From a virus, in the IMG/VR virus record IMGVR_UViG_3300028706_000004: a DNA stretch of 51,259 nucleotides; one strand, 5' to 3'. This document shows positions 33,302-49,094 of this stretch, in pieces (position 1 is the first letter of the stretch; every line of letters starts with the position of its first letter). The translations under genes and the position numbers were made by a program. Below the pieces are notes generated by a model. It did not search any database, was not told where the DNA came from, and was given only the letters and a program-made list of their open reading frames with translations.

Positions 33302-33311
33302 AATTCCCTCC

Positions 33312-33575
33312 TTAGACGGTTTGAGTATTTGTTCCGCCTTTTTTGCCTGTAGGAGCACTAGCGAAAACCTTGTTAACGTCTTCCTTGGATAGTTCGCCGT
33401 CCACGAGGTAGGCCCTAGCTAGCCCACCGACAACTGTCGCCACACCTGACAGGCCAGCGATAAGACAAGACTGCAAAATGTCGACACCAGCAATGGCGCC
33501 TGCTCCGATCACACTCAACGCATTCGCCACAAAAACGGCAATACAGCGCATAACAATTGTGGCAAGTCGTCTCAT
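33312..33575 (-). CDS. putative holin
   Basis: Two TM helices and a charged C-terminus; downstream of the endolysin. Confidence 0.65.
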   Translation of the reverse strand: MRRLATIVMRCIAVFVANALSVIGAGAIAGVDILQSCLIAGLSGVATVVGGLARAYLVDGELSKEDVNKVFASAPTGKKGGTNTQTV

Positions 33576-33820
33576 TTGAATGCCCCTCGGGCATGATCGG
33601 CTACATGCTCATCTAAATTTGCTTCTGTTCGTTGGGTGGATTCACGGACTTCATCAATAGATCTACCCAACCCCCGAGCGATCATGTCAAGTTTCATGGC
33701 GACAATACTGTGGTCGCGCTTATTGTCCCTACGGACCTTTTCGATCAACGCCACCGATGTCATAGCAAAGAAGCCAATTAAGGCAACAACGATCTCAGTC
33801 ATAGTTACGCCCTGTCCCAT
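33572..33820 (-). CDS. lysis-cassette membrane protein (N-terminal TM plus coiled coil, DUF2746-like)
   Basis: TM helix, then RRDNKRDH...LDEHVADH. Confidence 0.6.
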   Translation of the reverse strand: MGQGVTMTEIVVALIGFFAMTSVALIEKVRRDNKRDHSIVAMKLDMIARGLGRSIDEVRESTQRTEANLDEHVADHARGAFK

Positions 33821-34236
33821 CCCGGATTATCTTCAGCTACTGGTAGGTATTTACTAAACATCCTGCCTGCCACCAAAGCTAAGACGGTTGCTATTCCTGC
33901 TGCAACCAATGAAGTCTGAGCAATGTCGGCCCGTGAGGTGCCGTAGGTCGGCGATTGCGCGATCATTTCGACCCCGAAGGTCGCTACGCCGCAAAGCGCT
34001 GCTCGTGTCCAGTTGTTAACACGAAGTCCAAACACTGCAACTACGGTTGCGATAGCTGCTGTCAAACCACCCGACCTGAGAGCGTTAGCCCAATGGTCTC
34101 CTGTGATGGCAGACACGTCACCGCCAGTCATGGCAGTCAAACAGCCAAGAAACGTACTGCTTAGGTGCGTTTGTGGCTGTGCCACCTTGATCCGGTCAAC
34201 CACCCCATTCATAACTATGATTCCAATACAGCCCAA
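33805..34236 (-). CDS. multi-TM membrane protein
   Basis: 3-4 hydrophobic helices; in the lysis cassette. Confidence 0.65.
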   Translation of the reverse strand: MGCIGIIVMNGVVDRIKVAQPQTHLSSTFLGCLTAMTGGDVSAITGDHWANALRSGGLTAAIATVVAVFGLRVNNWTRAALCGVATFGVEMIAQSPTYGTSRADIAQTSLVAAGIATVLALVAGRMFSKYLPVAEDNPGWDRA

Positions 34237-34976
34237 GTTTTAGAACCACACACTCCATCAACGACTAAAGCATGATCATGTTGAAATGCTTTAACTCGCT
34301 GTTCAGTTTGAGGTCCGAATGCGCCGTCTGCAGTGATAGAAGTTGCTCCACCACAAACGTTGCATGCATGGCTATTTAAGAGTTCCTGCATGTATTGAGT
34401 GGCCTTACCTTTAGAGCCTTTTTTGCAAGTTGTTTTACGAGGTTTTGCAGGGGCAGCAATCATTCCATCTATTGCTCCCTCCGCCAGAGGGATGCTTCCT
34501 CCCCATAGAGGGGTTACGGCTGCTGCATAGTGGTCTGCATCGTCAGCGAATTCATTAGAGATTTCGACGTGAACCCAGTCTCCACCGGGTGTGAGGGACA
34601 TCACTTTGCGGTCATACGCTGTCCATCGTTGCCGGTCACATTTCCAGCCGCGCCCAAATGGCTTAGGCCAGTAGTCATAGACAGCTTCCACGCCCAGTTT
34701 TTCAGCGTGTTCTACAAGAAAGTCCATGACTTTGCGAGCCATTTCGTAGTCACCGTTGCCTTTAGTGCCCATGTCACGCCAAGAAATATCAAAAGCTCGA
34801 CCAGTTCCGTGTACGGAAGGAGACGATTTTCCACGTTTATTGCGGACAACCCAAGAACCGTTATGCCACATGCCGTTATTCGTGGCTTTGTTGATTTCTT
34901 TTATCAACTGTTCGGTCCCTTCTCTTCTACTGTTTGCTGTTTTATCAAAACCCGTATATGGGCGGGATTCAACCAT
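34215..34976 (-). CDS. endolysin: M15-type Zn peptidase plus PG-binding domain
   Basis: SVHGTGRAFD...DWVHVE; C-terminal DGAFGPQT...VKAFQ...LVVDGVCGSKTW. Confidence 0.85.
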   Translation of the reverse strand: MVESRPYTGFDKTANSRREGTEQLIKEINKATNNGMWHNGSWVVRNKRGKSSPSVHGTGRAFDISWRDMGTKGNGDYEMARKVMDFLVEHAEKLGVEAVYDYWPKPFGRGWKCDRQRWTAYDRKVMSLTPGGDWVHVEISNEFADDADHYAAAVTPLWGGSIPLAEGAIDGMIAAPAKPRKTTCKKGSKGKATQYMQELLNSHACNVCGGATSITADGAFGPQTEQRVKAFQHDHALVVDGVCGSKTWAVLES

Positions 34977-35092
34977 TATTACTCCAAAGACAACTACGTC
35001 AAAAACCTACGACGCCATACACATTGTACCTGACAGATAATAGAGCTCTTCTTTACTACTTCCCAATTTTGTATAAAGACACTCTTTATTCA

Positions 35093-38000
35093 TCAATCAA
35101 CCTCTTCGATAGTTAGTCGATACCACCCACTGTTGTTCCCGTTGTATACGGCAGCCTGTACCACATAGTCGCCCACAGCCATGTCCGTGCGGACGATGCG
35201 AGCATCCCACTGATCGCTCACGTTGTCGATCACGGCGACACCATCAGAGCAAGCGCCCCCGGTATCGCAGTAGGTGATCGTCGGGGTTTCGTCTACATCC
35301 ACGGCGTTGCTAGGCGGGGTAGCGCAGGTGCTTCCACAGTCACTTCCCCCATCGTCGTCCGTTTCAATCTGGGCACCAACCGTGACAGCACCAGTGTCCC
35401 CGGAATGATCCCCGGTGTCAGAGTCGTTGTCATTGTTCAGGTAGATGTACGGGTCGCCAGCCTCGTTGCTGGACCCGAACTGGGCGCTAGTCAGGTTCGA
35501 TTCGGCGTCGATACGGACACTGGTTACCTCGTCCAACGAGAACTGAATATGGTCACGGTCGGTGCGGCTAGAGGATTGCACGATGCACCAGTCGCCCATG
35601 CCTCTCCATCCACCCTCAGAGCAGCCTTCCTCGGTGTTCACAGCCTCAGCCGTTGTAGTAGACGCTGATGTGTAGGCGTCGCCAGCGGTAACCGTCGTGG
35701 TTTGAGGACTCCAGCCGCGCACCGTTGAGCAACTCTGCTGAACACCATCTGAGAACGTGCAGGTCGTCATATCCGATCCGGCGCGAGCCACCACGGTTGT
35801 CGTGTCTACATGAGTCGTCGTAACCGTCGTCGCCGTTGTGGTTGCAAGATGCCAGTGACCATCGTTGCTGTTGTGGGTCAAGATTCCGCTCTCAGCGGTT
35901 GTGGTGGCGGTCCCCGTCTGAGCAGTAGTGGTGCTCGTAGAGATCGTCTCGGACAAGGCAGCGTTCGTGGTCGTGTAGGTGATGGTCGGGTAGTAGACCG
36001 CTATCGGGACCACGACCGGGATGTACGCCTCTTGGACTTCTTCGGGGAGGTATTCCTGAGCGACATCTATTGGAACTATCCCTGCCTCAACTTCAAGAGT
36101 GAAACCAGCCCATGTGGTGTAGCCGCCCGGTGGTGCACCCCAATCGTCGTAGTAGGTGGGATCGTTGGCTGCGTCGTAAGCCTCCCAAGTTTCAAAGCCC
36201 CCGGGGGCACTGTCGCAAGCTGAGGTGCCCCTACAGCCTTCATAGGGGTCTACCCACTCCGGTTCCTCTGGTTCCGGCTCTGGTTCTGGCTCTGGCTCTG
36301 GTTCCGGTTCTGGTTCTATTTCTTCAGAAGGCAGCTCCGTTTCATCCATTTGCTCTTCATCCACTTGCGTTTCTGAAGATGTATCTGGGTCGGATTCTGC
36401 GTCTTCGTCACCGGGTTCGAACCATTCGTCCTCCTCTATGGGATCATCTTCAGTATCCCACTCTTCTTCATCGGGAAACTCTTCCCAAAGGGGTTCGTTC
36501 TCTTCGTCGTAAGCAACCCAATCTTCCTCTGTCCAATCCCACGACTCGCTAGGCGATGGACCCCAATCTTCCGGCCACTCCTCTAAGCCCATCTCCTCAA
36601 GGATGAGGGCTTCTTCGTCTTCAGCAGTCCATTCCTCTACTTCTTCTTCAAATTCTTCGACCTCTTCTTCAGTGAGACCTTCAAGCATTTCAAAGAAAGC
36701 CTGTTCTTGCTCTTCGTCATAAGTCACCCAATCCTCTTCGTCCCATGGACCCTCTTCACACTCGTCGCACCATTCAGCATCATCAGGCCAGAACTCTTCT
36801 TGCCAATCGTCCCATTCCTCTTCAGTGTTAAGCTCCCACGACTCTTCTTCTGCTATCTGCTCCTCTTCCCACAAAGAGTGCATCTCATCGTCGTAAGCCT
36901 GCCAATCACCGTCATCCCACAGCGCTGTTTCACTAGGAGAAGGACCCCAATCTTCTGGCCACTCATCAAGACCCTCTTCTTCAAGAATCATGGCTTCTTC
37001 GTCGGCTGCCCACTCTTGGTCGTAGGTGTCCCAGTCGTCCTCAGTCCACTCTGCGGCCTCCGTAGGTGACGGACCCCAGTCTTCGGGCCATTCCTCTACG
37101 CCCAGCTCCTCCAGCAGTGATTCTTCCCACGATGTGGGATCTTCCATCTCTTCTTCCCAGACGGAATCCATTTCCTCGTCGTAGACAATCCAATCCTCTT
37201 CTTCCCAATCGACAGTTTCAGTGGGAGACGGACCTAAGAGTGTTTCGTTCCACTCCTCCAGCCCCATCTCTTCGAGAATCATTTCTTCTTCTAATTCAGC
37301 GTCGTATTCCTGAAATGCAAAATCCTCTTCGTAATATTCTTCTTCGTACTCCTCCCAGAATTCCTCCTCGTCAAGCTCTTCATGCTCCTCGAAGAACACA
37401 ATGCGCTCTTCTTCAACCTCCGCCATGAATGATTCAACTTCTTCGAATAGTTCTTCTACATCGACAGCCTCACCAAAGAGGTCATCCATCAGCTCCTGCT
37501 CATCTTCGAACCATTCGTCTGTGTATTCAACCTCCTCCCACTGTTCGTCCTCCCAATATTCTTCGTCCACGCTAAGGAGGATTTCTACAAAGTCGATCTC
37601 ATCCTCCTCGAACGACTCAGGAGCCTCCCATTCCTCAACCGATTCAATCTCTTCTACATAAGAAGTACCCAGAACCTCTTCAATGCGATCTTCGGCGACT
37701 GCTTGGAAATACTCGGCATCTGAAGCCACCCACGCTTCAACCTCGACCTCCTCCGTGGTGATCTCCCCAGCATCTGCGTCGAACGTAAGTTCGATAACAA
37801 CGGGAACGACAACCGGTTCTGGTTCCGGTTGTGGAGGCAACGTGGTGACTGGCTCGTCTGGTCGAGCTGGAACAGTGACAGTTGGTTCCTCGAACACCTG
37901 TTCGGTAACCCGATAGTCGGTCATATCGACCTCTACCTCAGCCAACACCTCACCCTCATTATCCTGAATAGCAATGTCCAGCGTGTCCCTAACCGGCTCA

Positions 38001-39586
38001 GGTTCAGGAGTCGGAGCGCCGGGCTGTTCGACTTCGGGTTGAGGTTCGGGTTCCGCAGCGAAGGCCACCTCGATTTGCTGACCAGCCTCCAATTCGATCT
38101 CAACTTCAAGGGCATCAACTGCGATAGCGACAGTGGCTTCTTCAATCTCCGCAATTTCAACTGCTTCTTCAGAGAAGCTCAACAATGATTGAACCTCTTC
38201 GGGCTCTCCCTCCTCTTCCGGCTGTTCCCACCGCTCAGGCGTTTCTTCTTCTACGATTACAGCTTCAATCTGAACAGATTTCTCTTCGTTTAAAACCAGC
38301 AAAGAAAACTTCTGTTCGGTTTCTTCTTCTGTCTGTTCCTCTATTGCCTCTTTAATCCTGTCCTGAGTAGAGCTGGGCTTCTCTGTTTCCGGAGTTGGAA
38401 TATCAATCTCTTCAACATCTGCGGAGAATGCCTCCACCCCGGGAGGGAGGAATACCAGCACCGGGTCCGCCGTACTCGGTCCTGAAATCAGGTAACGATA
38501 AGTAGCTCCTTCAATCTCATTGATAAACACGCCGTCGTAGTAGCCCAGCCTGTTACCAGATTCAGTTTCGATTTTGAGAGCCATTTGCTTGTCGCCGGAA
38601 GCGGCAACAGTAAGCATCGTTCCTGATTCTTCCCCATCTTCTTGAGGGCAGAAACTGCATGTGAATGGACCTGACCGAGAACGCATCGGAGTGAGCTCCA
38701 TGGTTCCTGTCCCACCAGACCATGCTTCCGACTGTTCGGTGGGGTTGGTGGCAGCCAATGCATATATCCACTGACCGTCTTTAGATACGTCAATCCAGCG
38801 TTCTTCGTTGGGCCAGTTAGAGTCATAGATATAGATGCGGTAGCCACCGGCCATTTCTTCGACCCGGTAAGGGGTGACGGCGTGGCCCCCCTGTTCGCTG
38901 TAAATACCGATTGTGAAGCCGGTGTGTGGGTTTCCCTTTTCTGCTTCTGAGAAGTCATAAAGAAGAACTTGTGCGAGCTCTGTTGGGGATTTCTCCAGAT
39001 AGGAAGAAGCTTCCTGCTGCACCTCCATAGCAAACTGCGTCACATACCAGTACGCGATCTCGGAGAGGAGTGCTGGGTCTTGCTTAATCAGTTCCGCGAC
39101 AGTTTGAGTATTCTGAAATGTTGCAAGAGTCTCTATGTCACCTGCAAGACGTAAACTCAGAACAGCCAAGCCTTCACATAGCCCACCACGCATTGACTTG
39201 TTGGCCTGTGACATCAACTGCAGAATCACCGGGTACGGCGTACATTTACCGTCAGTTACATCTGAACAGACCTGACTGTCACCATATAGGCGACGTGTCA
39301 TATTGACCGTTAAGTCTGCTGGGGCTTCCCCACCACTGAAGTTCTGAAACGAAAAGGTGTCATCGTTGGTTGTGTAGTTTGGGATGGCATGGTCGGCGAG
39401 GGGCGCTTTTTCTAATACCTCTGGAGCAACGGTCGACGTAGTTGAGATGACCCCATCGGTAGTTGTCGTGACGATTTTAGTAGTCGTTGGGGGGAACAGA
39501 GTGTCTGTTGGAGCAGTCGGTTCCGAACTAGAGCAGCCGGAAAGGACCAGAACGCCAGCCAAGAAGGCAGAGAGAAGCCGTTTCAT
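35093..39586 (-). CDS. large lipoprotein: Cys-His-Asp papain-like domain, acidic Trp-rich repeat stalk, C-terminal PPC-like domain
   Basis: Lipobox LVLSGC; GGLCEG / GGHAV / YDSN; E/W-rich repeats; DPYIYL...DDDGG...GDYVVQA...GWYRLTI. Confidence 0.75.
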   Translation of the reverse strand: MKRLLSAFLAGVLVLSGCSSSEPTAPTDTLFPPTTTKIVTTTTDGVISTTSTVAPEVLEKAPLADHAIPNYTTNDDTFSFQNFSGGEAPADLTVNMTRRLYGDSQVCSDVTDGKCTPYPVILQLMSQANKSMRGGLCEGLAVLSLRLAGDIETLATFQNTQTVAELIKQDPALLSEIAYWYVTQFAMEVQQEASSYLEKSPTELAQVLLYDFSEAEKGNPHTGFTIGIYSEQGGHAVTPYRVEEMAGGYRIYIYDSNWPNEERWIDVSKDGQWIYALAATNPTEQSEAWSGGTGTMELTPMRSRSGPFTCSFCPQEDGEESGTMLTVAASGDKQMALKIETESGNRLGYYDGVFINEIEGATYRYLISGPSTADPVLVFLPPGVEAFSADVEEIDIPTPETEKPSSTQDRIKEAIEEQTEEETEQKFSLLVLNEEKSVQIEAVIVEEETPERWEQPEEEGEPEEVQSLLSFSEEAVEIAEIEEATVAIAVDALEVEIELEAGQQIEVAFAAEPEPQPEVEQPGAPTPEPEPVRDTLDIAIQDNEGEVLAEVEVDMTDYRVTEQVFEEPTVTVPARPDEPVTTLPPQPEPEPVVVPVVIELTFDADAGEITTEEVEVEAWVASDAEYFQAVAEDRIEEVLGTSYVEEIESVEEWEAPESFEEDEIDFVEILLSVDEEYWEDEQWEEVEYTDEWFEDEQELMDDLFGEAVDVEELFEEVESFMAEVEEERIVFFEEHEELDEEEFWEEYEEEYYEEDFAFQEYDAELEEEMILEEMGLEEWNETLLGPSPTETVDWEEEDWIVYDEEMDSVWEEEMEDPTSWEESLLEELGVEEWPEDWGPSPTEAAEWTEDDWDTYDQEWAADEEAMILEEEGLDEWPEDWGPSPSETALWDDGDWQAYDDEMHSLWEEEQIAEEESWELNTEEEWDDWQEEFWPDDAEWCDECEEGPWDEEDWVTYDEEQEQAFFEMLEGLTEEEVEEFEEEVEEWTAEDEEALILEEMGLEEWPEDWGPSPSESWDWTEEDWVAYDEENEPLWEEFPDEEEWDTEDDPIEEDEWFEPGDEDAESDPDTSSETQVDEEQMDETELPSEEIEPEPEPEPEPEPEPEPEEPEWVDPYEGCRGTSACDSAPGGFETWEAYDAANDPTYYDDWGAPPGGYTTWAGFTLEVEAGIVPIDVAQEYLPEEVQEAYIPVVVPIAVYYPTITYTTTNAALSETISTSTTTAQTGTATTTAESGILTHNSNDGHWHLATTTATTVTTTHVDTTTVVARAGSDMTTCTFSDGVQQSCSTVRGWSPQTTTVTAGDAYTSASTTTAEAVNTEEGCSEGGWRGMGDWCIVQSSSRTDRDHIQFSLDEVTSVRIDAESNLTSAQFGSSNEAGDPYIYLNNDNDSDTGDHSGDTGAVTVGAQIETDDDGGSDCGSTCATPPSNAVDVDETPTITYCDTGGACSDGVAVIDNVSDQWDARIVRTDMAVGDYVVQAAVYNGNNSGWYRLTIEEVD
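36500..37290 (-). repeat. coding repeats, about 37 aa x4 plus a partial copy
   Basis: Consensus ILEExGLEEWPEDWGPSPxExxxWxEEDWxxYDEE. Confidence 0.8.
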
Positions 39587-39589
39587 GGC

Positions 39590-40030
39590 TTACCCTCGTT
39601 TACGTTTACTCTGGTACCAGATCAGAAAGCCGATAAAGATAACGATGCAGGCAGCAGCAATAATGACAGTGGCCGACCCCCCGGGGGCTCCACTCATATC
39701 AATGGAAAAGTTTTTGGCTCCGCCGCCGAGCAGGTCGTTCTCAGCCTTTAGTTCTGCTACGGCTTCTTCTAATTGGGCGACTTGATAGGACAGAGCTGCT
39801 TCCTCGTTGGAGTTTTGCCAAAGGAACCCAAAGGCGCCAGAAATGGCGGCTGGAAGTCCAAGGACCCAAGCAATGTTGTCCTTGCACTTTGTGAGTAGCT
39901 TTGTGGCCTTTTTCGCCTGACTCAGAGAAGCCTTTTTCTCGGGCTTCGCAGGGGTAGAGGCGGTTTCGGCCAGTGTTTCTTCAATAACAGCGGCGCTGCG
40001 CTTTAAATACTTTTGGAGGTCCCCATCCAT
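39590..40030 (-). CDS. membrane protein (2 TM with coiled coil between)
   Basis: Two hydrophobic helices; directly upstream of the lipoprotein. Confidence 0.65.
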   Translation of the reverse strand: MDGDLQKYLKRSAAVIEETLAETASTPAKPEKKASLSQAKKATKLLTKCKDNIAWVLGLPAAISGAFGFLWQNSNEEAALSYQVAQLEEAVAELKAENDLLGGGAKNFSIDMSGAPGGSATVIIAAACIVIFIGFLIWYQSKRKRG

Positions 40031-40080
40031 CCTTGCCCCCTATAACTAACAAGCCTAGGAGGCCATTTTACACTACAGAA

Positions 40081-40368
40081 CTAGACGACTCTGTTGGGTC
40101 CTTCGAGTTTTCCGACAATATTGATGAAATTTTCAGATAATTTCTTTAGATTCTCATACGGTTTCTTATCCGCCTCAGGGAAATCGTCTATTAGGGAAAC
40201 TCCTTCAACATCGGTTTGCCATAAAACATCAGGTTGTGTGAAATCCATAGCATCAGCATCTAACCCCATACCGAAAGCCAGTTCAAACATGGTCGTTTCA
40301 ACGTCTTTTCTAGCTCGCAGAAGAATCTGACGACGTTCCGCTGTTGTCATTGAATGTGGAATAGCCAT
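40081..40368 (-). CDS. hypothetical protein (possible fibre chaperone)
   Basis: Directly downstream of the Gly-rich fibre gene. Confidence 0.55.
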   Translation of the reverse strand: MAIPHSMTTAERRQILLRARKDVETTMFELAFGMGLDADAMDFTQPDVLWQTDVEGVSLIDDFPEADKKPYENLKKLSENFINIVGKLEGPNRVV

Positions 40369-40394
40369 AATGCATCACCAACTAGATTTTATCA

Positions 40395-41810
40395 TTAGAC
40401 AGCAGCATCAATATGGGTATATGTAGCGCTTGTCAAGGTTATGTTGCTTGTTATTGTCGAAGAAGCCGTGTCTGTGATTAGAACGATGCCACCGAAACGA
40501 CCCAGACCGCCTGTTGTTCCGGTCCCACCAGCACCGCCAGCACCGCCAGCGCCTCCCGGATCTTGGTTTCCTGCAGAGTGGTGAGCCCCATGGGACGGAT
40601 TGGTGTTTCCACCGGTTACCGGGTTGACATTTCCACCCGGATTTACATTGCCACCCGTCGGCGGATTGACATTTCCACCTTCGACTGGGTTGACATTTCC
40701 ACCGTGAGTCGGGTTGACATTTCCGCCGGGATTGGTGTTTCCACCTTCGACTGGGTTGACATTTCCACCGACCGGGGAATGGGTGGGTGGGCCGGGTCCG
40801 TAAGCCGTGTATGGATTTCCGGGAGAGTGGTACCCATTTGTTGGGTGATGGAAGCTCGGGTTGTGCGCTCCGTGTGAAACCGGGTTTCCCGGAGATTCCT
40901 TATGGTGAGACGGATTGACGTTTCCGCCCGTTACTGGGTTGACATTTCCACCCGGGTTGACAGTGCCGCCTTCGACCGGATTGACATTTCCACCGGTTAC
41001 CGGGTTGACATTTCCACCGGTTACTGGATTGACGTTTCCGCCGGGATTAACGTTTCCGCCCGTTACTGGGTTGGTATTTCCACCCCCGGCAGGAGTGTGC
41101 GAACCGGGATTAATCGCTCCCGCATTTCCCGGGTTTCCAGCAGCCCCAGTAGCTCCAGTAGACCCAGCAGACCCAGCTACTCCGGCACTAACAATCGTTC
41201 CAGAACCGCTAATCGTTTTGGCTGCCACTACAACCAAACCTCCGCCAGCGCCTCCAGCGCCACCAGAACCTGTGCCTCCCGTACTTCCGGGGTTTCCCGG
41301 ATTACCCAACGGTGGAGTTCCCGGCGCAGCACCACCTGCGCCTCCCGGACTTCCCCCAGTATCAGAACCGGTATCACCATCGCTGCCAGCTTCAAAACGT
41401 TTAAAACCGTCGGTGGGGTCCCAGTTCCAACCCTGAATAGCTTGCTCTAAGTCCTTCAATATCGACGCAGGAACTTGAGTTGCACCACCTGCGGTAGAAT
41501 CTCCCAAAACGTAGGTTTTAGGGATGCTTCCATCGTCAACACGACCAGTAACCGTTCCGAGCCCAACTGTATGTTGCACAGCAGAAGGCATACCCAAGGT
41601 TCCCGTTATGTCTAAGTCTCCAGTACAAAAAACACGGAATCCATTAGTAAATAGAATTGCACCACTTTGTATAGTGCAGGTCGTGTAGTACATGTCACGA
41701 GTCATTACGACGGTTCCAGTAATAGACGCGGCACCGTCAACGCCCGTTCCATAAATAATGTCGTTGCCGAGACGTTGAACAACGGGTCTGTTATGTCGAA
41801 TGATAGGCAT
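40395..41810 (-). CDS. glycine-rich virion/tail-fibre-like protein with GGNVNP repeat insertion
   Basis: YGTGVDG...MTRDMYY...TNGFRVF...GGAGGGLVVVAAKTISGSG glycine-rich scaffold; 16 GGNxNP repeats. Confidence 0.75.
   Translation of the reverse strand: MPIIRHNRPVVQRLGNDIIYGTGVDGAASITGTVVMTRDMYYTTCTIQSGAILFTNGFRVFCTGDLDITGTLGMPSAVQHTVGLGTVTGRVDDGSIPKTYVLGDSTAGGATQVPASILKDLEQAIQGWNWDPTDGFKRFEAGSDGDTGSDTGGSPGGAGGAAPGTPPLGNPGNPGSTGGTGSGGAGGAGGGLVVVAAKTISGSGTIVSAGVAGSAGSTGATGAAGNPGNAGAINPGSHTPAGGGNTNPVTGGNVNPGGNVNPVTGGNVNPVTGGNVNPVEGGTVNPGGNVNPVTGGNVNPSHHKESPGNPVSHGAHNPSFHHPTNGYHSPGNPYTAYGPGPPTHSPVGGNVNPVEGGNTNPGGNVNPTHGGNVNPVEGGNVNPPTGGNVNPGGNVNPVTGGNTNPSHGAHHSAGNQDPGGAGGAGGAGGTGTTGGLGRFGGIVLITDTASSTITSNITLTSATYTHIDAAV
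40590..41084 (-). repeat. two 60-aa arrays of GG(N/T)(V/T)NP(xx) repeats flanking a His-rich 45-aa spacer
   Basis: Arrays at 41084-40905 and 40769-40590, each with unit lengths 8-6-8-8-8-6-8-8. Confidence 0.9.
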
Positions 41811-42535
41811 TAGTCAACCTCAATGTAGATGGTTGTCCCATCAGTGTGGTTACCTGAACCGCTTCCTTTCGCCGCCGACAATGTCAAGTGTGTTTGGGCG
41901 TTGAACGTAGCTTCGTCATTTGACGAAAAGAAGATAATGGCACCTCCGCCCGCTTGGGCGCCCCCAGTTGCAGAAATCGTGCAAGCTCCTGCTGTGGAGA
42001 TGTATCGTGCTGCAACAATTACTACCCCTCCGCCAACCCCTTGACCAGTTGGACCACCTGCTCCACCCTGCAAATGAGTGGGAGTGGTTGCTGAAGCAGT
42101 AACCGCGTAACCACGAACAGCCTGAGCTGGATATCGCCAGTATGCGGTTCCGCCTTGTGCTGCCGTGGGGGCGGTAGCAGTGCCCCCATCAGCGGAACTA
42201 TCTGTGTTTCCGTTGCCACCGAGGCTGCATGTCGTATTAACTGTGACTGCCGCTCCAGCTTTTAGGGTACCCACAGCGGTTGAACCACCGGGAAGGCCGA
42301 TAACCGACGAAGCTCCCATAGTTAAAACGTTTTTTACAAATAACCGATACCCACCAGTATTTAGTGTGATACCACCATTAACAGTCAAGTTGTAGTAGTA
42401 CATGTCACTGGACATGGTGGCATTAGTAGCTATCGTTGCATCTAAATCTGCGCCTGAGCCATAAACGTCATCCGGGGAATCTAGGAAGCTTGCCAATTTT
42501 CCCGGCGAGTTGACCTTAACCCTGCCCCATGTCAT
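41810..42535 (-). CDS. glycine-rich virion protein, paralogue of 40395..41810 without the repeat insertion
   Basis: YGSGAD...MSSDMYY...TGGYRLF...GGGVVIVAARYI. Confidence 0.75.
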   Translation of the reverse strand: MTWGRVKVNSPGKLASFLDSPDDVYGSGADLDATIATNATMSSDMYYYNLTVNGGITLNTGGYRLFVKNVLTMGASSVIGLPGGSTAVGTLKAGAAVTVNTTCSLGGNGNTDSSADGGTATAPTAAQGGTAYWRYPAQAVRGYAVTASATTPTHLQGGAGGPTGQGVGGGVVIVAARYISTAGACTISATGGAQAGGGAIIFFSSNDEATFNAQTHLTLSAAKGSGSGNHTDGTTIYIEVD

Positions 42536-42876
42536 TAGGTGATCTCAATTCCGCTCACCGTCGCATTAACGCTAGAAGCGTTGCCACATAACATATGCAA
42601 CTCGTCTCCGGTGTTCATAACCATTGACATGTTGAGAAGCGTTGTTTCTTTTTCTGTAAGGGATAAGTCTTTGAATATCTGATGTGTGTCAGCAATGGTG
42701 ACACCGTTTGGCTTCAGTGTGAGGGTTACCGTCTGTGCTGAAGCTGTGATATTTGTCAGGACTATTTGTTTTACAATTGTTGATGTGCCGCCCCCTACTG
42801 TGTATTGGACGCCACCGTATGTACCCGTGTTGATTACAACTGCGGGTCCAGACAACCTTGTTTGTGTCAGTGCCAT
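42535..42876 (-). CDS. small beta-sandwich virion structural protein
   Basis: YTV...TIVKQIVLTN...VMNTGDEL...VNATVSGIEI, recognised from aquatic phage tail regions. Confidence 0.65.
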   Translation of the reverse strand: MALTQTRLSGPAVVINTGTYGGVQYTVGGGTSTIVKQIVLTNITASAQTVTLTLKPNGVTIADTHQIFKDLSLTEKETTLLNMSMVMNTGDELHMLCGNASSVNATVSGIEIT

Positions 42877-42929
42877 AGATTGGGTCCTTCCCGGAAAGCT
42901 GCACTCTTCTACATATTACCAGTCATACC

Positions 42930-43793
42930 CTACAACGTATTGCCCTTTGGGGGGTTTAACTCGCCGAAGATCCAATCGGATAGGCGTTTTTTGAAAGACT
43001 TCTGTTTTCCAGCCACAGGACACACTTCTGGAATCGGCGCATCCTTTTGTTCTCGACGGTAGGCACCACTTCTATCCGCAGGTATGCCGATAGGTGATTG
43101 CATGCCGAGATTTATTAACCATTCAGCTATTTTCGGCTGACCATACATAATATTTTGGTGATTTCGTGGAAATGTAATCATTTGGGCAATAGGCCAGCCC
43201 ATAGGGATCACGAATTCTTTGTCAGTGAAGATATTAATAACCCAATTCATAGTGTGGTAATAATCGGTATTGACAATCCCCGGCATGAGTGACCATTCCC
43301 GTGGTTCCTCCATCCAGCACGGTAATAGCAGTGTTGACCAGCCGGGAGCTGTTTTAATTGTCCACGGATTGACTACTTTGATGTGGTTACTCTCAGGCAG
43401 TCCACGTCCTTCGTTGAATGGACAGCCCGCTCCGCTGGATTCATAAGTAAAAATATCTACAGCGAGACCGTGATTTCTCTCGTCTCCAGCTATGTCCCAG
43501 CGAGCTTCCCATTTCTGTGCGTCTGCCGACGGTCGGAATCTAAGAGGGGCAGGTAATCTCCATGTGCCCCCCAAGGAAATGTAATCAGATGTTCCCTGAC
43601 AGGCTTTAAATCCGCCTCCTGCGTTTCTTCTCCAAGAAGGCCAAACCTTAGAGTTATCCAAGGGGGTTATTTTGGGGTCATAAAATCTGTCGTGTTGTGG
43701 ACTCAAAAGGATGTGACCCGGAGGTATCTCGATATCAGAAGCTAACAAATAGTCGTCGCCGAGAAGATCTTCTCCACGGATTTTGAAGTCCAT
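42930..43793 (-). CDS. DUF6065-like (dUTPase-like beta-clip) protein
   Basis: FKAC...PWTIKTAPGWSTLL...GIVNTD...IPMGWPIAQMITFPR. Confidence 0.6.
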   Translation of the reverse strand: MDFKIRGEDLLGDDYLLASDIEIPPGHILLSPQHDRFYDPKITPLDNSKVWPSWRRNAGGGFKACQGTSDYISLGGTWRLPAPLRFRPSADAQKWEARWDIAGDERNHGLAVDIFTYESSGAGCPFNEGRGLPESNHIKVVNPWTIKTAPGWSTLLLPCWMEEPREWSLMPGIVNTDYYHTMNWVINIFTDKEFVIPMGWPIAQMITFPRNHQNIMYGQPKIAEWLINLGMQSPIGIPADRSGAYRREQKDAPIPEVCPVAGKQKSFKKRLSDWIFGELNPPKGNTL

Positions 43794-43811
43794 ACGAATA
43801 CTTTAGTCTAA

Positions 43812-44507
43812 TTAGGCAGTTTTGACCGCCACAGAAACTCCAAGACCTGAAGCCATGTGGTACAGATTTGCATCTGCTCTATCTGTGAGATTCGAATACA
43901 AATTGACGTAGTCGTGAGCACTGTCGAACTCGAACCACCTACCATGATCGTTTGTACTGGTTAGGATTATTGATCCCCCTACCGGGAGCTGATCAAAGAT
44001 GTTCGTTACGATTTCAAAATTATGGTTTACCTGCGGCATGTGAATCGATGCCATATCGAAAGTCTTAGGAAAACTATTTAATTCGATCGCGCCCATCGTA
44101 ATGGTTTCGTATTCCAATCCAGACACGTCCATATGGCGTTCCATGTAATCCAAGTGCAGATTGTTAACCAAGGTTATGTTGCCTACGCCCAACTTGAGCG
44201 GACAATAGGGAATTCCGATCACAAGCAGTTCAGACGGAGCACTTAAACGAATCAGCATTTCCTGCATGCTCCGCATGTGTGCGTTGACCGCGTTAAAGCT
44301 CGGGGAGTTGGAAGCAACTCGCTCGTAGACGCACAGCTCGTCGTTGTAACCAACGGTCTCCGTGCTTCGATCCATCCCGTGTCCGGTTTCTTCGTTAACT
44401 ATTGCCGTAGCAGAAGCAATTTGTGCGTCAGAATCTAAGTTCGACGTATGGTCAGCTGAGGTGTATTTTTCTGCGACCTTTATCATGTCGATTGCATTCA
44501 GCGCCAT
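43812..44507 (-). CDS. degenerate class I SAM-methyltransferase-like protein
   Basis: PSELLVIG...FDMASI...QLPVGGSIIL strand pattern; SAM-binding Gly loop poorly conserved. Confidence 0.45.
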   Translation of the reverse strand: MALNAIDMIKVAEKYTSADHTSNLDSDAQIASATAIVNEETGHGMDRSTETVGYNDELCVYERVASNSPSFNAVNAHMRSMQEMLIRLSAPSELLVIGIPYCPLKLGVGNITLVNNLHLDYMERHMDVSGLEYETITMGAIELNSFPKTFDMASIHMPQVNHNFEIVTNIFDQLPVGGSIILTSTNDHGRWFEFDSAHDYVNLYSNLTDRADANLYHMASGLGVSVAVKTA

Positions 44508-44782
44508 TATCCGTTCCTAGCTGTCAGAAGGTCACGCTGGTATATGAATTTACGAGCGTTATCAAATTTTCGTTGTCTGGATCTATAAATGGTCCTTTGC
44601 GCCACTGTCCATCCTTCAGGAACATGGGGATCGCCGATACCGGCGTGAGCGGTGGCGATCAACTCTTTGAGGTCAGCATAAGTGATCGACCCAGCAGAGG
44701 TTTCGTCACCCCCAACGGAGGCGATTATGACCCCAAGCGAATTACAGATAGATGTGTAATTGGCGTCTGCATCGTAAGCCAT
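44507..44782 (-). CDS. hypothetical protein
   Basis: RBS GGAGGAGG; coupled to the next gene. Confidence 0.6.
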   Translation of the reverse strand: MAYDADANYTSICNSLGVIIASVGGDETSAGSITYADLKELIATAHAGIGDPHVPEGWTVAQRTIYRSRQRKFDNARKFIYQRDLLTARNG

Positions 44783-44785
44783 TGC

Positions 44786-44929
44786 TTATTCCTCCTCCGG
44801 TGGATTTAAAAGGGGATCATCTATTGTCATAACAGGAGAATCGTACATTGTGCATAACACGATAGAGTCGTCTGGTTGAACATCACGATCTAACGATGAA
44901 TCCCACTTTTCGGGTTTCACATCAGGCAT
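44786..44929 (-). CDS. 47-aa acidic microprotein
   Basis: MPDVKPEKWDSSLDRDVQPDDSIVLCTMYDSPVMTIDDPLLNPPEEE; RBS GGAG. Confidence 0.5.
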   Translation of the reverse strand: MPDVKPEKWDSSLDRDVQPDDSIVLCTMYDSPVMTIDDPLLNPPEEE

Positions 44930-44964
44930 AATAGGTTCTCCAGCGCAGTCCTACTTTCATTGTA

Positions 44965-45756
44965 TCAGTTGTCTTTCTCGACAATTTGGTCTTCAGTCTC
45001 CACACTTTCTACATCTACTTTGAGTGGAGTAGCCATAGGTGCCAGAGATCGACCATGACTCTGTGTGTCTCCCTGAATGTTTTCACATGTAATAAAGCTG
45101 TTGAGAATAAATTTGTCGGAAGATAACGGAGTTAGTCCGAGATGTGGATGCGTCCAAGCTGTAGGAAATACGGCCACACGGCCAGCAACAGCTGAAACGA
45201 TTTGTCTCTGTTCTGGAAACTTTGTGCCACCACCGGATTCCACAGTATTGAGATATATGATAATTCCAAGAACACGGGGTAAATCGTCCCCTGAAGCGTA
45301 CCTTTCCCATGGAGTTGCATCACAATGCTGTCTATACCATCCTCCGGCTTGGTGATAATGCTGCAGACGGAAACCAGTGTCACACAGACCCGGAGCAGTC
45401 CATAGTTCCCTGTATTGCTCCCTGTACTTAGCAATCGCCGTATACATCGCCCGTTGAGCTTGAACTCGCATGGACCCAAATACAGATACCGAATCAAGAT
45501 CTCTGTCCTGTAACCACGCCGGATCGATAGAGGCGTCCATGCTTTTTTTCATATCTGGACGAACACCACCCCAAGTGGGGCCGGGTTCAAACATCACCTC
45601 ATAATGTTGTTTACAAGCATCTAAAAATTCTTGACATAACGACTCTTCAATACTCCCATCAAGAGTAAGTAGGAAATTTCTAGTACCACCGGGAAAATCA
45701 AAAGAAAGAGTCACTTCACTGCTCCAATCTGGGAATGAGTTGTCCACCGAAATCAT
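44965..45756 (-). CDS. prolyl-4-hydroxylase-like 2OG-Fe(II) oxygenase
   Basis: HCD...IIYLNTVESGGGTKF...FPTAWTHPHLG...K. Confidence 0.88.
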   Translation of the reverse strand: MISVDNSFPDWSSEVTLSFDFPGGTRNFLLTLDGSIEESLCQEFLDACKQHYEVMFEPGPTWGGVRPDMKKSMDASIDPAWLQDRDLDSVSVFGSMRVQAQRAMYTAIAKYREQYRELWTAPGLCDTGFRLQHYHQAGGWYRQHCDATPWERYASGDDLPRVLGIIIYLNTVESGGGTKFPEQRQIVSAVAGRVAVFPTAWTHPHLGLTPLSSDKFILNSFITCENIQGDTQSHGRSLAPMATPLKVDVESVETEDQIVEKDN

Positions 45757-47248
45757 CAAAATGCCAGTCGGCACGCTTGTCTGAGTATATTTTGTGGGCG
45801 CGATCAAGGACCACCCTATGCGCCACTTCAAGAGGATTTTCACTAGAGCTTTTGACCTCTTCCAGCATGCTTCTTGCTGGTTGGGTAGATCCGTATGCTT
45901 CGACCCCAACCCTAGCCCCCTCCTTGCTGATCAGACCCTGACCTTGAGCTACATGCCAAAAGTGGGGTATCTGGAAAAGCTCGTAGCCAGTCATGGGTAA
46001 GTCGTGAGCCTCAGGGCCTCTGTGGCTAAACATTTCTATTAAGAAATTGAGTAGCTCGGGCCTTGGCGAATGCTGTTGGTCAATCCACATTGGTGAATCC
46101 TGACGATCTGAAACATAATGCATAGCCACCATCGTTAGAAGATTATCAAACATCGAATCAAAAACCTTGCTGTACCCCTGTTGTGGGGCTGTCGAGTTCG
46201 ACCTGTAGGTGGGCAAGTATGAACAAATCAATCTAGATTGCTCGATAGTCGCAGCTATTGAAGTTGCTTCTAGTGGTTCAATAAAGTTGGACGCCAACCC
46301 TACCGCAACACAGTTGAATTGCCATGAATTTTCTACTTTAAATGGCTTGTACTTGATGATTCGAGCGTCGGTTACTGGCTCATTTATATACTCTTCAACT
46401 TCTTTAGCCGCTCGTTCTTCATCCGTATAGCGAGAAGAGAATACATACCCATGACCCCTTCGTTCATAGGTGGGAATCTCCCAATGCCACCCAGCAGATA
46501 AGGCTTTAGCCTCAGTAAAAGGTTTGATCGTATGGTTTTCTTGCGTTTGAAACACCAAAACAGAGTCACAAGGGAGATATTCTTCATAAGAACTTTGCCA
46601 AATCTCACCCAACTCTTTCAGTATTACTTGGTTAAAACCGCTGGCATCAATAACGAAATCTGTTTCGATGTTTCCTGTAGAAGTAATAACGCTAGTAATG
46701 TCACCCGAGGAAGGGTCTCTTTCAATCCCGCTGACCATAGCGTCAACGAACTTGATACCCATGGTTTCTGCGTGACCAATTAAATATGTATTTAATTTGG
46801 CACTGTCAAAATGAAATTGATTAGTTTGATGCCACGGGTTAGGAGTGTCTGGGACTAGATTGTTTATTAATCCTGCATGGGTAAGTGAAGGGGTCAGCTG
46901 CCTGTCGGAAGAATGAATGTAATTATAAAGACCATTAAATGTACCTGTGTTGGTATATAAAATACGACCAGAAATACTATGAAAATAGTCTGGCGTATGG
47001 TTGGTCCAATCTAAAAATCTAATTCCATATTTGAAGGTAGCCATAGAGTCTCTAATTAAATGAGGTCTATCTATCCCAACACGATCCTCATATGCCGCCC
47101 ATTGTTCCGTGCTGCCTTCGCCCACACCAATAGGCTCGATCTCTTTCGAAGAAACTACCGTGACCTCGAAGTCCGCGAAAGTCGCCTTTATGGTTGTTGC
47201 CGCAATCAGCCCTGCTTGACCAGAGCCCACTATAAGAATGTGTTTCAT
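45716..47248 (-). CDS. flavin-dependent halogenase (tryptophan halogenase family)
   Basis: GSGQAG, IGVGEGS, ATFKYGIRF (catalytic Lys), WHWEIP, FIEPLEATSI. Confidence 0.9.
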   Translation of the reverse strand: MKHILIVGSGQAGLIAATTIKATFADFEVTVVSSKEIEPIGVGEGSTEQWAAYEDRVGIDRPHLIRDSMATFKYGIRFLDWTNHTPDYFHSISGRILYTNTGTFNGLYNYIHSSDRQLTPSLTHAGLINNLVPDTPNPWHQTNQFHFDSAKLNTYLIGHAETMGIKFVDAMVSGIERDPSSGDITSVITSTGNIETDFVIDASGFNQVILKELGEIWQSSYEEYLPCDSVLVFQTQENHTIKPFTEAKALSAGWHWEIPTYERRGHGYVFSSRYTDEERAAKEVEEYINEPVTDARIIKYKPFKVENSWQFNCVAVGLASNFIEPLEATSIAATIEQSRLICSYLPTYRSNSTAPQQGYSKVFDSMFDNLLTMVAMHYVSDRQDSPMWIDQQHSPRPELLNFLIEMFSHRGPEAHDLPMTGYELFQIPHFWHVAQGQGLISKEGARVGVEAYGSTQPARSMLEEVKSSSENPLEVAHRVVLDRAHKIYSDKRADWHFDDFGGQLIPRLEQ

Positions 47249-47815
47249 TTATACAGGCCACATGTATTTGAAGTATAGAAACGCTTCATCATTTACTGAT
47301 CTAGCTCTTAAATCAAATGGAAACAGACACGGCAAAATAAGCACATCTCCAGCAAACATGTCATATTCAATATCGTGTGCTTCTAAACGAATCGTAACAT
47401 CGGAAAGAGCAAACATCGCTGCCGTCGTATAAGAATTGGTAGGTGGATCGAGGGTCCCAGAAAATTGGTTGCCATTTTTCTCTATCCATATGAACTGAGG
47501 GCCACTATCTCTTAAGTAAAAAGTTTCGTGATACAGAGAGTAACTATTCAAGCAGTTTTCTACTATTTCGTTCATTTCATAGAAAGCTTCTTTCATTTCC
47601 AGTAAACGGTCAGCAACCGCAGTCAACACCGGACTCAAAGGGGTGTAGTGACTATTGCAATGCTCCAAATCGTTGCTGAATCCCCCAAAAGATGGGAGAT
47701 ACGACCATGTTCGTGCAGTCTCTTCTTTGTAGCCTTCTATAACGGCTTTAGCATCATGGCCGCAGTGAAATATTTCTACAGTAGGAATGATTGTTGTGAC
47801 ATCTTTTATCGTCAT
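47249..47815 (-). CDS. 2OG-Fe(II)-oxygenase-like protein lacking iron ligands
   Basis: AGDVLILPCLFPF matches GNIVLFPSSYAYAH of its neighbour, but HxD and the distal His are absent. Confidence 0.5.
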   Translation of the reverse strand: MTIKDVTTIIPTVEIFHCGHDAKAVIEGYKEETARTWSYLPSFGGFSNDLEHCNSHYTPLSPVLTAVADRLLEMKEAFYEMNEIVENCLNSYSLYHETFYLRDSGPQFIWIEKNGNQFSGTLDPPTNSYTTAAMFALSDVTIRLEAHDIEYDMFAGDVLILPCLFPFDLRARSVNDEAFLYFKYMWPV

Positions 47816-48474
47816 GTAAAAAATGCCGCCATACTGTATTTGACTTCTCCGCTGTATCGTCCAGCTGGTTCAGAAGCATGAGCATAAGCATATGAAGAAG
47901 GAAAGAGAACGATGTTTCCTTCAATGCAATCAGTTGCGACATTTTGGAATGGGAAAAAAGTTCTACCACCATCCTTAACGGTATTTAAATAACAAACAAC
48001 CGACAACAGTCTGGGGTCATCAGTACCATGATCGGCGTGAACCTTATATTGTCCGCCATGCCCGTATTTATTGATAACCCAACCCGAATGATCTTGAAGT
48101 TTTAAATTATTCTTGATTCGATAATCCCAAACAGCCCGCTCAACATGGTATAAAACCGGGTACGCAGCCTTCTGTAGCTCCGTATAGGTTTCAATCTCAG
48201 CTTCGGGATCGAACACACTCAAATGGTCCGTCAATACTTGAGAACGAGAGTCCCTATACAGGCCGATTCGTTGATTGTCTCCACGACCAACCTTTGCGGC
48301 GTTCCAACGGGTTATGTCTCCGTCTTTTTCAATAGCATCAACTAACGCTTGACCGTCAAACGGATAATGGTAAACGTAGAGAAACGGAGCGATTTCGAGA
48401 TGAGGAAATGGATCATCCTCCAATGAGGTGCGAGCAAGGTGGGGATTTGGTATCCCCTTTGGAAATTTCACCAC
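47812..48474 (-). CDS. prolyl-4-hydroxylase-like 2OG-Fe(II) oxygenase
   Basis: HAD...VCYLN...GGRTFF...FPSSYAYAH...KYS. Confidence 0.9.
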   Translation of the reverse strand: MVKFPKGIPNPHLARTSLEDDPFPHLEIAPFLYVYHYPFDGQALVDAIEKDGDITRWNAAKVGRGDNQRIGLYRDSRSQVLTDHLSVFDPEAEIETYTELQKAAYPVLYHVERAVWDYRIKNNLKLQDHSGWVINKYGHGGQYKVHADHGTDDPRLLSVVCYLNTVKDGGRTFFPFQNVATDCIEGNIVLFPSSYAYAHASEPAGRYSGEVKYSMAAFFT

Positions 48475-48890
48475 GGATTCACCGTGATTTTCTCAGACGC
48501 TATATCTCCGTCTTTGTCATAAACTCTGACCTCATATTCTCCCGGACTGGGAAAACGAATCCTCCAACCCTTGTAATGAGGATCGCCCGACATTAGTGCT
48601 CCGACCTCCGTGGTTCCCTGAGGTCCGTCATAAGCCAGACATACATTGCCTACAAGCGTGAATTCGTCTACATAGTTACACGCAAGGGTTTGGTAAGGTC
48701 TAAGGAATGAGTCAGAGATCTTAAAATGCTGTTCAATTGGGATATTTAATATCTGAACTTTATCCCTGTCGAAGTCAAGCGCTTCCGTTGCTTGACTCTC
48801 TCCAGTTTGAACATGAATACCCCACGGTAGAGCCAACTCCATAGCTTCCTCGACCAGATCGTCGGAGGGGCAATAGCAGATCCGTTCCAT
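48468..48890 (-). CDS. hypothetical protein with Ig-like C-terminus
   Basis: FPSPGEYEVRVYD...EKITV. Confidence 0.55.
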   Translation of the reverse strand: MERICYCPSDDLVEEAMELALPWGIHVQTGESQATEALDFDRDKVQILNIPIEQHFKISDSFLRPYQTLACNYVDEFTLVGNVCLAYDGPQGTTEVGALMSGDPHYKGWRIRFPSPGEYEVRVYDKDGDIASEKITVNPW

Positions 48891-48893
48891 TGT

Positions 48894-49094
48894 TTATTCC
48901 TCTACGGAATCGTCAGTTACGAGCTCCACGTCTTCAATGGCTGCCGCTGGTGGACCGTCAGGAGCCGCTGCCACCTGTTGCTGTTGCATTTGCTTAATAG
49001 CTGTACGGAGTACCGCATTATCTATAGATAATCGCTTTACTTGGTCAGCCAAATCGTCAATGACACCTTGTGGAGAAACCGCATCGTTTTGCAT
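48894..49094 (-). CDS. small coiled-coil protein
   Basis: IDDLADQVKRLSIDNAVLRTAIKQMQ. Confidence 0.65.
   Translation of the reverse strand: MQNDAVSPQGVIDDLADQVKRLSIDNAVLRTAIKQMQQQQVAAAPDGPPAAAIEDVELVTDDSVEE

Follow-up and report, generated by a model that had tools for sequence, protein, structure and literature searches.

A candidate host-recognition protein with a large excursion and two length-matched repeat arms, encoded by a phage of probable actinobacterial hosts

The window analysed here, a stretch of 51,259 nucleotides (nt), is part of the 80-kb IMG/VR virus record IMGVR_UViG_3300028706_000004, the completeness of which is estimated at 54%. On its minus strand, the open reading frame (ORF) 40395..41810 encodes a protein of 471 amino acids (aa), the long member of a protein family, which combines a predicted beta-helix scaffold with a large excursion. 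All parts of the gene are given here on the same strand. Residues 1-207 (41190..41810) form an N-terminal domain that contains Gly-rich rungs and the first beta segment of the scaffold, as judged by both the structural model and the homology to the adjacent paralogue. The sequence and the model then delimit an ascending Gly-X-Y-like limb ending in NPGSHTPAGG (residues 208-242; 41085..41189), arm 1 (residues 243-302; 40905..41084) and arm 2 (residues 348-407; 40590..40769). Between the arms lies a 39-aa core running from KESPG to GPGPP (residues 304-342; 40785..40901), which the model and its conservation designate as a predicted beta-hairpin tip with two conserved histidines, His316 and His321. 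After arm 2, a descending limb made of GAHHSAGNQDP and a Gly-rich run (residues 408-439; 40494..40589) leads back into the scaffold, whose final beta rungs and helix follow (residues 440-471; 40398..40493), with strands at 440-445, 457-459 and 462-467 and the helix at 449-455.

Each arm is made of eight GGNVNP(xx) units. Translation of the gene gave 16 units of the form GG[NT][VT]NP, eight of them starting at residues 243-295 and eight at residues 348-400, and the unit lengths follow the code 8-6-8-8-8-6-8-8 in both arms when the trailing SH is counted. An initial annotation made from the sequence alone had described two 60-aa arrays with a matching unit-length code, diverged codons, an HxP before and SH...GN after each array, and a spacer of 45 aa with seven His between them. 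All of this was confirmed: arms 1 and 2 together span exactly 40590..41084, one is preceded by HTP and the other by HSP, SHHKESPGN and SHGAHHSAGN follow them, and the spacer, with the borders of that annotation (residues 303-347; 40770..40904), does contain seven His. The arms share 50/60 aa and 140/180 nt, and their 60 codon pairs divide into 35 identical ones, 15 with synonymous differences and 10 with non-synonymous differences. Moreover, each arm consists of two copies of a 30-aa super-unit (8-6-8-8). The in-register pairs of super-units share 67/90 and 73/90 nt, and their identical residues are encoded by the same codon in 17/24 and 18/26 cases, while the four out-of-register pairs share 61-64/90 nt and the codon of 11-13 out of 22-25 identical residues, indicating that the arms are related as whole 60-aa blocks. 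Both arrays are picked up by Tandem Repeats Finder, with periods of 24, 42 and 66 nt. The direct arm-to-arm alignment scores 310, compared to 133 for a composition control with one arm reversed, and an exact word of 32 nt is common to both arms.

The age of this relationship was estimated by the Nei-Gojobori method, which gave for the two arms 0.64 synonymous substitutions per synonymous site (dS) and 0.16 non-synonymous substitutions per non-synonymous site (dN), a ratio of 0.26 that reveals purifying selection on both. The dS of the orthologous scaffold compared to that of the related locus L003 is 1.24. Since the value for the arms is lower, their last common ancestor postdates the split from the L003 lineage, which fits the different repeats of L003. 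The divergence of the arms is old enough to have saturated a third of the synonymous sites, with the peptide motif retained, and the arms represent neither a simple recent duplication nor an ongoing homogenisation. The core shows a dS of 0.47 compared to L003, below the 1.24 of the scaffold, in a small sample of 39 codons; core recombination or a constraint at the codon level could account for it. A diversity-generating retroelement, with variable and template repeats as in Mtd-like systems, was also considered and rejected since the 40 sites that differ between the arms show no adenine bias (A at 11 of them in arm 1 and at 12 in arm 2, with changes in all base classes) and no reverse transcriptase was matched among the scanned ORFs of the window and of the rest of the record. 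As regards the motif itself, the other GGNVNP-like matches P0070, P0076, P0084, P0087, P0093, P0104, P0128, P0131 and P0135 turned out to be unrelated low-complexity proteins. The sole GGNVNP-like match with true arrays was P0045, a 712-aa protein from another genome that is rich in F/Y-x-G-x-R repeats and in which GGNVNP/GGNTNP arrays flank a short central piece, showing that the arm motif is present in a second, unrelated protein context; the genome under study contains no other match to it. Opposite the repeat region, the plus-strand open frames 40563..40877, 40902..41450 and 40915..41436 are most simply explained as by-products of coding repeats of low complexity.

The AlphaFold model of the 471-aa protein, built on 71 homologues, has a mean predicted local distance difference test (pLDDT) score of 74.5, and 217 residues reach at least 90. 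Within residues 1-207, pLDDT is mostly at least 87 from residue 21 on, apart from one block of 10 residues at 80, and strands are found at 191-201 and 204-207. The body is thus modelled as a single-chain beta-helix, with the stacked rungs of a single-chain solenoid as in right-handed beta-helix adhesins or bactofilins. The best structural matches are a bactofilin (Z 7.4, 86 aligned residues) and a tapirin-like adhesin (Z 7.3), followed by pertactin, two-partner-secretion (TPS) domains and a tailspike, with Z scores ranging overall from 4.0 to 7.4; since all of them are below 8, they indicate a common fold class and not kinship. A sequence profile search of the PDB returned collagen and low-complexity matches only. 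The matches in BFVD are collagen-like giant-virus proteins and uncharacterised phage proteins with low template modelling (TM) scores, and in the Atlas the neighbours are hypothetical proteins from viruses and point weakly to Mtd_N and GP38 (0.75).

The gene next to it, 41810..42535 (minus strand), encodes a 241-aa paralogue, the short member, which the initial annotation had recognised as the same scaffold without the insert. Comparison of the two families by hhalign bears this out, with a probability of 99.9% over 130 columns, and the AlphaFold model of the paralogue (pLDDT 89.3) gives the same list of structural matches. Its elements are ordered as strand 171-181, strand 185-188, loop 189-198, strand 199-204, a helix and two strands; those of the 471-aa protein as strand 191-201, strand 204-207, residues 208-439, strand 440-445, a helix and two strands, so that the end of the scaffold (440-471) follows the same order as paralogue residues 199-239. 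In the models, the 10-residue loop 189-198 of the paralogue is therefore replaced by an excursion of 232 residues (208-439). The Gly-rich limbs of this excursion (about 208-230 and 411-439) are modelled with pLDDT of 76-98; the score stays at 95-98 up to about residue 230, drops beyond it, and climbs to 98 along the descending limb. At its centre (304-346), a beta-hairpin made of strands 305-315 and 332-342 is predicted with pLDDT of 68-87. Because the excursion exits and re-enters at neighbouring strands and carries a hairpin at its centre, the model would place the arms side by side and antiparallel, whether they are ordered or not.

Close homologues were gathered from two syntenic loci (orthologues of 445 and 473 aa) and, for eight others, from protein searches and IMG/VR. 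In 10/10 close homologues the core is 38-40 aa long, with the pattern K-E-x-P-G-x-P-V ... H-N-P ... H-x-P ... G ... Y ... G-x-P. Fifteen of its columns (K, E, P, G, P, V, HNP, H, P, G, Y, G, P) are kept in at least 6/8 sequences, including the two His that correspond to residues 316 and 321. The arms, on the other hand, change their repeat type from lineage to lineage: GGNVNPxx in the 471-aa protein, units of six residues (G-D/N-P-P) in L003, His-rich units of eight residues in the L002 group, and G-x-P units of five to seven residues in P0154. Measured between homologous landmarks, arm 1 and arm 2 have lengths of 70 and 71 residues in the 471-aa protein, 69 and 71 in L003, 56 and 57 in both L002 and P0151, and 54 and 55 in P0001. 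In this closest clade the two arms are thus within 1-2 residues of each other over a range of 54-71. The remaining pairs are 55 and 63 in P0154, 60 and 75 in P0003, 77 and 101 in P0004, 78 and 87 in P0157, and 78 and 96 in L011. Identity between the arms is 10/56 in L002 and 28/69 in L003, and since the arms of the L002 group are matched in length though unlike in sequence, gene conversion alone is insufficient to explain the matching. The arm-length matching is therefore real yet loose, in a sample with few independent lineages. The initial annotation had asked whether both arms change together in homologues; this is what we see in the closest clade, while in the other 5/10 the arms differ by 8-24 residues. 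The simple recent duplication named as an alternative in the initial annotation is contradicted by the co-varying arm lengths of the clade, by the two conserved core His and by the arm dS of 0.64.

At a larger scale, the family counts 342 relatives among cluster representatives (E<=1e-3) and at least 409 confirmed IMG/VR stretches related to the 471-aa protein, and the 241-aa paralogue has 130 homologues of 132-422 aa. Where source names were found for relatives, all read "hypothetical protein". In the 79 members with locatable flanking anchors, the insert is 19-1071 residues long and has a median His content of 12.7%, compared to 0.6% in the remaining protein. Its His content is at least 8% in 52/79 members and below 2% in 11/79, some of the latter being Cys-rich or Tyr-rich. 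With 6.0% His, the insert of the 471-aa protein is at the low end of the family because its arms are Gly/Asn/Pro. It also contains no His-x-His (HxH) motif, while as many as 25 are found in single inserts of distant members. Cysteines are absent from 62 of 92 distinct inserts; 29 of the 30 inserts that carry them do so in even number, exactly two in 21 cases, which suggests disulfides and an extracellular life. In the inserts with two Cys, these mostly bracket or occupy the centre, and the outer flanks differ by at most 8 residues in 10/21, the borders being approximate. The correlation of flank lengths in these 21 inserts is weak, at 0.28 by Spearman (p 0.23) and 0.44 by Pearson (p 0.04), for borders that were trimmed automatically and rows that are related. 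PF01391 (Collagen) is found in 4/58 homologues. Other sub-families have Cys-rich inserts (9-11%, about 26-40 Cys), Tyr-rich and His-free inserts, or inserts of 810-1071 residues (P0048, P0186; P0183-P0190; P0024, P0059, P0143).

The 471-aa and 241-aa genes form a module with a 113-aa gene, the first of the three (42535..42876, minus strand), and the three overlap start to stop. The synteny of this module was studied in 75 related loci (L002, L003, L011-L083), in which enzymes were counted in 3-kb flanks. A homologue of the 113-aa gene, whose product has only weak matches to SP2_C and phrog_1276, is found in 69/75 loci. A match to the 241-aa paralogue is found in 75/75, cross-matching between paralogues being possible, and the short and long members are adjacent in at least 42/75 when a strict motif test is applied. 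Immediately upstream of the module, 8/17 scanned loci have a gene that matches tail-fibre PHROGs (E<=2e-13), several of these genes being collagen-like, and four more of the 17 have one with weaker structural matches. In the genome studied here, a tail-fibre gene lies at the start of the record, about 11.5 kb upstream of the module and on the same strand. As for the host, two WhiB genes (PF02467) are located in the record outside the window (L005:1518-2018, E 4.8e-17; L005:18277-18657, E 1.9e-12). WhiB is described in a passage of PMC10202952 as exclusive to Actinobacteriota and as a marker of their phages, and the host is thus probably actinobacterial, as judged from the sequence of these two genes.

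Enzyme genes are frequent around the module. A homologue of a 2-oxoglutarate (2OG) oxygenase is found near it in 53/75 loci, and in 51 of them this is a homologue of the window's own 2OG-Fe(II) oxygenase gene 47812..48474 (minus strand; PF13640, Pfam E 1.4e-10). Homologues of the tryptophan-halogenase-like gene 45716..47248 (minus strand; Pfam E 1.1e-89) occur in 21/75 loci, and those of a 140-aa ORF (48468..48890) in 18/75, located between the long gene and the oxygenase where they are seen. In the window, a minus-strand oxygenase cluster extends over 31652..50578, with 2OG-Fe(II) oxygenases of PF13640/PF13759 type at 31652..32203, 44965..45909, 47812..48474 and 49973..50578 (the last one below the Pfam cut-off), a TauD-family dioxygenase at 32200..33201 and an NADP/F420 oxidoreductase-like gene at 49335..49985. 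Upstream of the module, genes of 287 and 231 aa (42930..44507, minus strand), the first matching phrog_7084 of unknown function, recur in only 15/75 and 17/75 loci and thus form a clade-specific extension of the cassette. Farther away, 35093..39586 (minus strand) encodes a protein of 1497 aa, the N-terminus of which is of lipoprotein type (...LSGC) and which contains extremely acidic Glu/Asp/Trp-rich repeats as well as stretches rich in Thr; it matches no family, and its first 400 residues are without homologue in the 75 related loci. Two endolysin-like PG_binding_1 genes are present in the record (34215..34976, minus strand, and L005:3570-4346).

DNA nearly identical to that of the window is found in marine and seawater metagenomes, namely in six runs that contain at least 0.88 of the words sampled; they come from five named studies, with one run that names no study, a count that leaves out runs flagged as possible sources. 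Contigs of the DNA runs X12, X13 and X14 showed no difference in letter or length from the gene where they covered it, the cover of the arms being fragmentary and contigs being prone to drop rare variants. Contigs from the RNA library X15 match 41066..42211 and 42357..42600 identically; carry-over of DNA is possible, so that expression is not implied.

Our best explanation, in which we place about as much confidence as doubt, is that the 471-aa protein carries a stalk-and-tip host-recognition loop on a beta-helix body. A Gly-rich limb would rise from the body, continue as arm 1, turn in the His/Asn/Pro/Tyr beta-hairpin core, and come back as arm 2 and a descending Gly-rich limb. With each arm pinned to the scaffold at one end and to the hairpin at the other, the two could form an antiparallel stalk, rigid or elastic, that would hold the core away from the body. 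The hypervariable excursion would most likely contact the host surface and, by analogy with gp38-type adhesins, set specificity, and its tip could use His, Asn and Tyr residues to bind a ligand or a metal. The arms would go back to a 60-aa block that was duplicated or converted after the split from the nearest sampled relative, and selection may since have maintained both their sequence and their equal length. The initial annotation had likewise seen the arrays as a hairpin or stalk presenting a His tip. Its outline stands, as the two limbs of one excursion do flank a predicted hairpin with conserved His, while the model, with pLDDT below 50 in the arms, does not show them packed against each other. 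Its further suggestion of an iron-loaded receptor decoy finds no support, given an insert devoid of HxH and a probably actinobacterial host; to our knowledge, actinobacterial hosts lack the outer-membrane siderophore receptors that such a decoy needs.

Several observations weigh against the stalk-and-tip explanation. In the model, no paired structure is built for the arms (240-303 and 347-410), where disorder is possible. The matches of the body are middling and generic, none reaching Z 8, and Foldseek found nothing in the PDB at E<=0.001. No library names the family either: neither the 471-aa nor the 241-aa protein is assigned to one in Pfam (E<=0.01), PHROG or NCBIfam, and searches of 50,697 records of cultured phages by tblastn with the protein and by megablast with 21 kb gave no match, to which low-complexity filtering may contribute. 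As for the arms, arm 2 exceeds arm 1 by 8-24 residues in half of the close homologues (largely by one extra 14-aa unit in P0003, where the arms are near-identical), and clear direct-repeat arms, scoring at least 1.5 times the reversed control, are found in only 12/96 family rows, two of which are one insert; the 471-aa protein is the strongest case among them. Single-arm forms also seem to exist. P0153, an L003-like homologue of 377 aa on a 1345-nt contig, has one arm and no core, and one X14 contig joins 40605 to 40987, skipping 381 nt in frame from arm 1 to arm 2 with loss of the core. The two sides of this joint have 32 letters in common; since the arms share a word of this length, the joint is as likely to come from a mis-join in k-mer assembly as from a genuine deletion, a caveat that extends to P0153. 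If such forms are real, the tip is dispensable. Finally, oxygenase and halogenase genes intervene here between the tail-fibre gene and the module.

The same arms might instead be disordered low-complexity linkers, born by slippage and unpaired, whose match would record an intragenic duplication or conversion between homologous flanks; the excursion would then be variation that is tolerated or, at most, serve as a flexible tether. We hold this to be unlikely, though a serious contender. It agrees with the arm pLDDT below 50, the Gly-, Asn- and Pro-rich composition, the direct and not mirrored relation of the arms (310 against 133 when reversed), the exact 32-nt word, the near-identical arms of P0003 that differ by one 14-aa unit, and the unequal arms of 5/10 close homologues. 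However, conversion would erase synonymous differences and neutral drift would lose the motif, whereas the arms show a dN/dS of 0.26 at a dS of 0.64. Arms of the L002 type are equal in length (56/57, 54/55) yet only 10/56 identical, the core is conserved, and three marine DNA runs contain no variation where they cover the gene, albeit with patchy cover of the arms. The excursion may also act in a homotrimer, three copies forming a six-stranded, metal-stapled needle with a head as in T4 gp37, which we judge very unlikely. The up-tip-down topology is that of gp37, which binds seven iron ions via HxH motifs according to the relevant passage of PMC11705849; distant members have up to 25 HxH per insert, and collagen-type G-X-Y runs flank the insert, with PF01391 in 4/58 homologues. 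Yet the scaffold is confidently modelled as a single chain and the 471-aa insert has no HxH; gp37 is not among the fold matches listed, which does not exclude a likeness to it.

The neighbouring enzymes bring in another reading, improbable in our estimate and compatible with the stalk-and-tip one, namely that the excursion serves above all as a substrate, with hydroxylation or halogenation of its Pro, Asn, His and Tyr residues, and that the modified stalk is the functional form. The many Asn-Pro-Gly sites of arms and limbs would suit it, as would the presence within 3 kb of a PF13640-type oxygenase in 53/75 loci, a halogenase in 21/75 and the 140-aa ORF homologue in 18/75, and the four 2OG-Fe(II) oxygenase-type matches of the window (one below the Pfam cut-off) with its TauD-family dioxygenase. 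But synteny alone is no proof of a substrate relationship, the enzymes also adjoin collagen-like tail-fibre genes that are equally good candidates, and the role of phage halogenases is called speculative in a passage of a 2010 review (PMC2984593). In a fuller form, to which we likewise give little credence, the conserved block of genes for the tail fibre, the 113-aa, about-240-aa and long His-rich proteins, the about-140-aa protein, the prolyl-hydroxylase-type 2OG oxygenase and the tryptophan-halogenase homologue would be a phage system dedicated to modification. It would hydroxylate or halogenate a stalk-and-tip adhesin that is hypervariable and binds metal, and in which the arms of matched length would make a paired stalk with post-translationally written chemistry. 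The protein could lastly be no virion component at all and act at lysis or on the host surface, released with the phage, which seems to us hardly probable. The module does adjoin a 146-aa protein with a weak spanin-like match (E 0.0084), the acidic lipoprotein-like 1497-aa gene and a PG_binding_1 endolysin are nearby, and the 471-aa protein has no structural PHROG match. In other phages, however, tail-fibre genes immediately precede the module; only 5/75 and 2/75 loci contain homologues of the 146-aa protein and of the endolysin, respectively, and the sequence has no N-terminal signal peptide.

If the stalk-and-tip explanation is true, a very common unnamed family of aquatic phage proteins recognises hosts by a design not described for phage adhesins: a giant His-rich low-complexity excursion with a conserved hairpin tip and length-matched arms, grafted on a small beta-helix. 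It would give a handle on the host range of uncultured marine actinobacterial phages and a natural test case for the length co-evolution of repeat arrays. The tight synteny also leads to a testable hypothesis for the function of phage 2OG oxygenases and halogenases, and the modification reading, if true, would give these long-unexplained "auxiliary" genes a structural role in host recognition. For the "Ferrojan horse" debate, the family is a His-rich candidate for the phage surface, this member being without the HxH motif.

Among known systems, the circumsporozoite protein of Plasmodium contains NANP/NVDP repeats, short tandem units of Asn-x-Asn-Pro type with turn-forming residues. The likeness of NVNP to these, noted in the initial annotation, is compositional only: there is no homology, and the units here have 6 or 8 residues with a Gly-Gly spacer, in two arrays around a folded core. 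As in the collagen-like and Gly-rich minor tail or tail-fibre proteins of actinobacterial phages, there are G-X-Y runs here, on both sides of the insert, and genes for collagen-like tail fibres precede the module. For phages of 'Ca. Nanopelagicales', an excerpt of PMC10202952 describes a variable island that includes genes for tail fibres and collagen-like proteins, and suggests a link to host recognition. The 471-aa protein differs from such proteins in that its Gly-rich parts are modelled within a single-chain beta-helix body, and its G-X-Y runs are short, about 8 triplets, with no match to Pfam Collagen (PF01391). Full-text literature searches, which do not extend to papers in subscription journals, found no description of the family or of a two-armed His-rich excursion.

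T4 gp37 resembles the protein by the up-and-down path of its chain to a distal head and by a His-rich stalk, and HxH motifs are abundant in distant family members. The tip of gp37, in the work of Bartual from 2010, is reportedly a six-stranded needle with a head. It is an intertwined trimer, unlike the single-chain scaffold predicted here, and the 471-aa protein has no HxH; no sequence match to gp37 was found, nor does it occur among the fold matches listed. The gp38-type adhesins (Salmonella phage S16 gp38, PDB 6F45; T2/T6 gp38), together with the glycine-rich domain of Pam3 gp24, offer the other comparison. Their Gly-rich motifs run up and down and their distal hypervariable segments set specificity, as described in a part of PMC9608196, and the body is a beta-helix or beta-sandwich on both sides of the comparison. 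Here too, conserved and confidently modelled Gly-rich limbs flank a segment that is hypervariable in length and sequence, a likeness in architecture only: neither the 471-aa nor the 241-aa protein matched PF05268 (GP38) in the Pfam scan (E<=0.01), and, as regards the gp38 fold of beta-helix plus polyglycine-II sandwich, 6f45_D aligns to the family models with Z 5.3 (root-mean-square deviation 4.3, 117 aligned) and Z 4.0 (3.4, 107 aligned), values that tie with those of generic, unrelated beta-helices. Where gp38-type adhesins have several short loops, this family has one giant excursion (about 100 to >1000 aa; 232 aa here), a His-rich, low-complexity segment in which matched arms enclose a conserved core. 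With membership of neither group demonstrated, the 471-aa protein would, by analogy, work most like the Gly-rich tips of gp38/Pam3 type while its topology would be most like that of T4 gp37.

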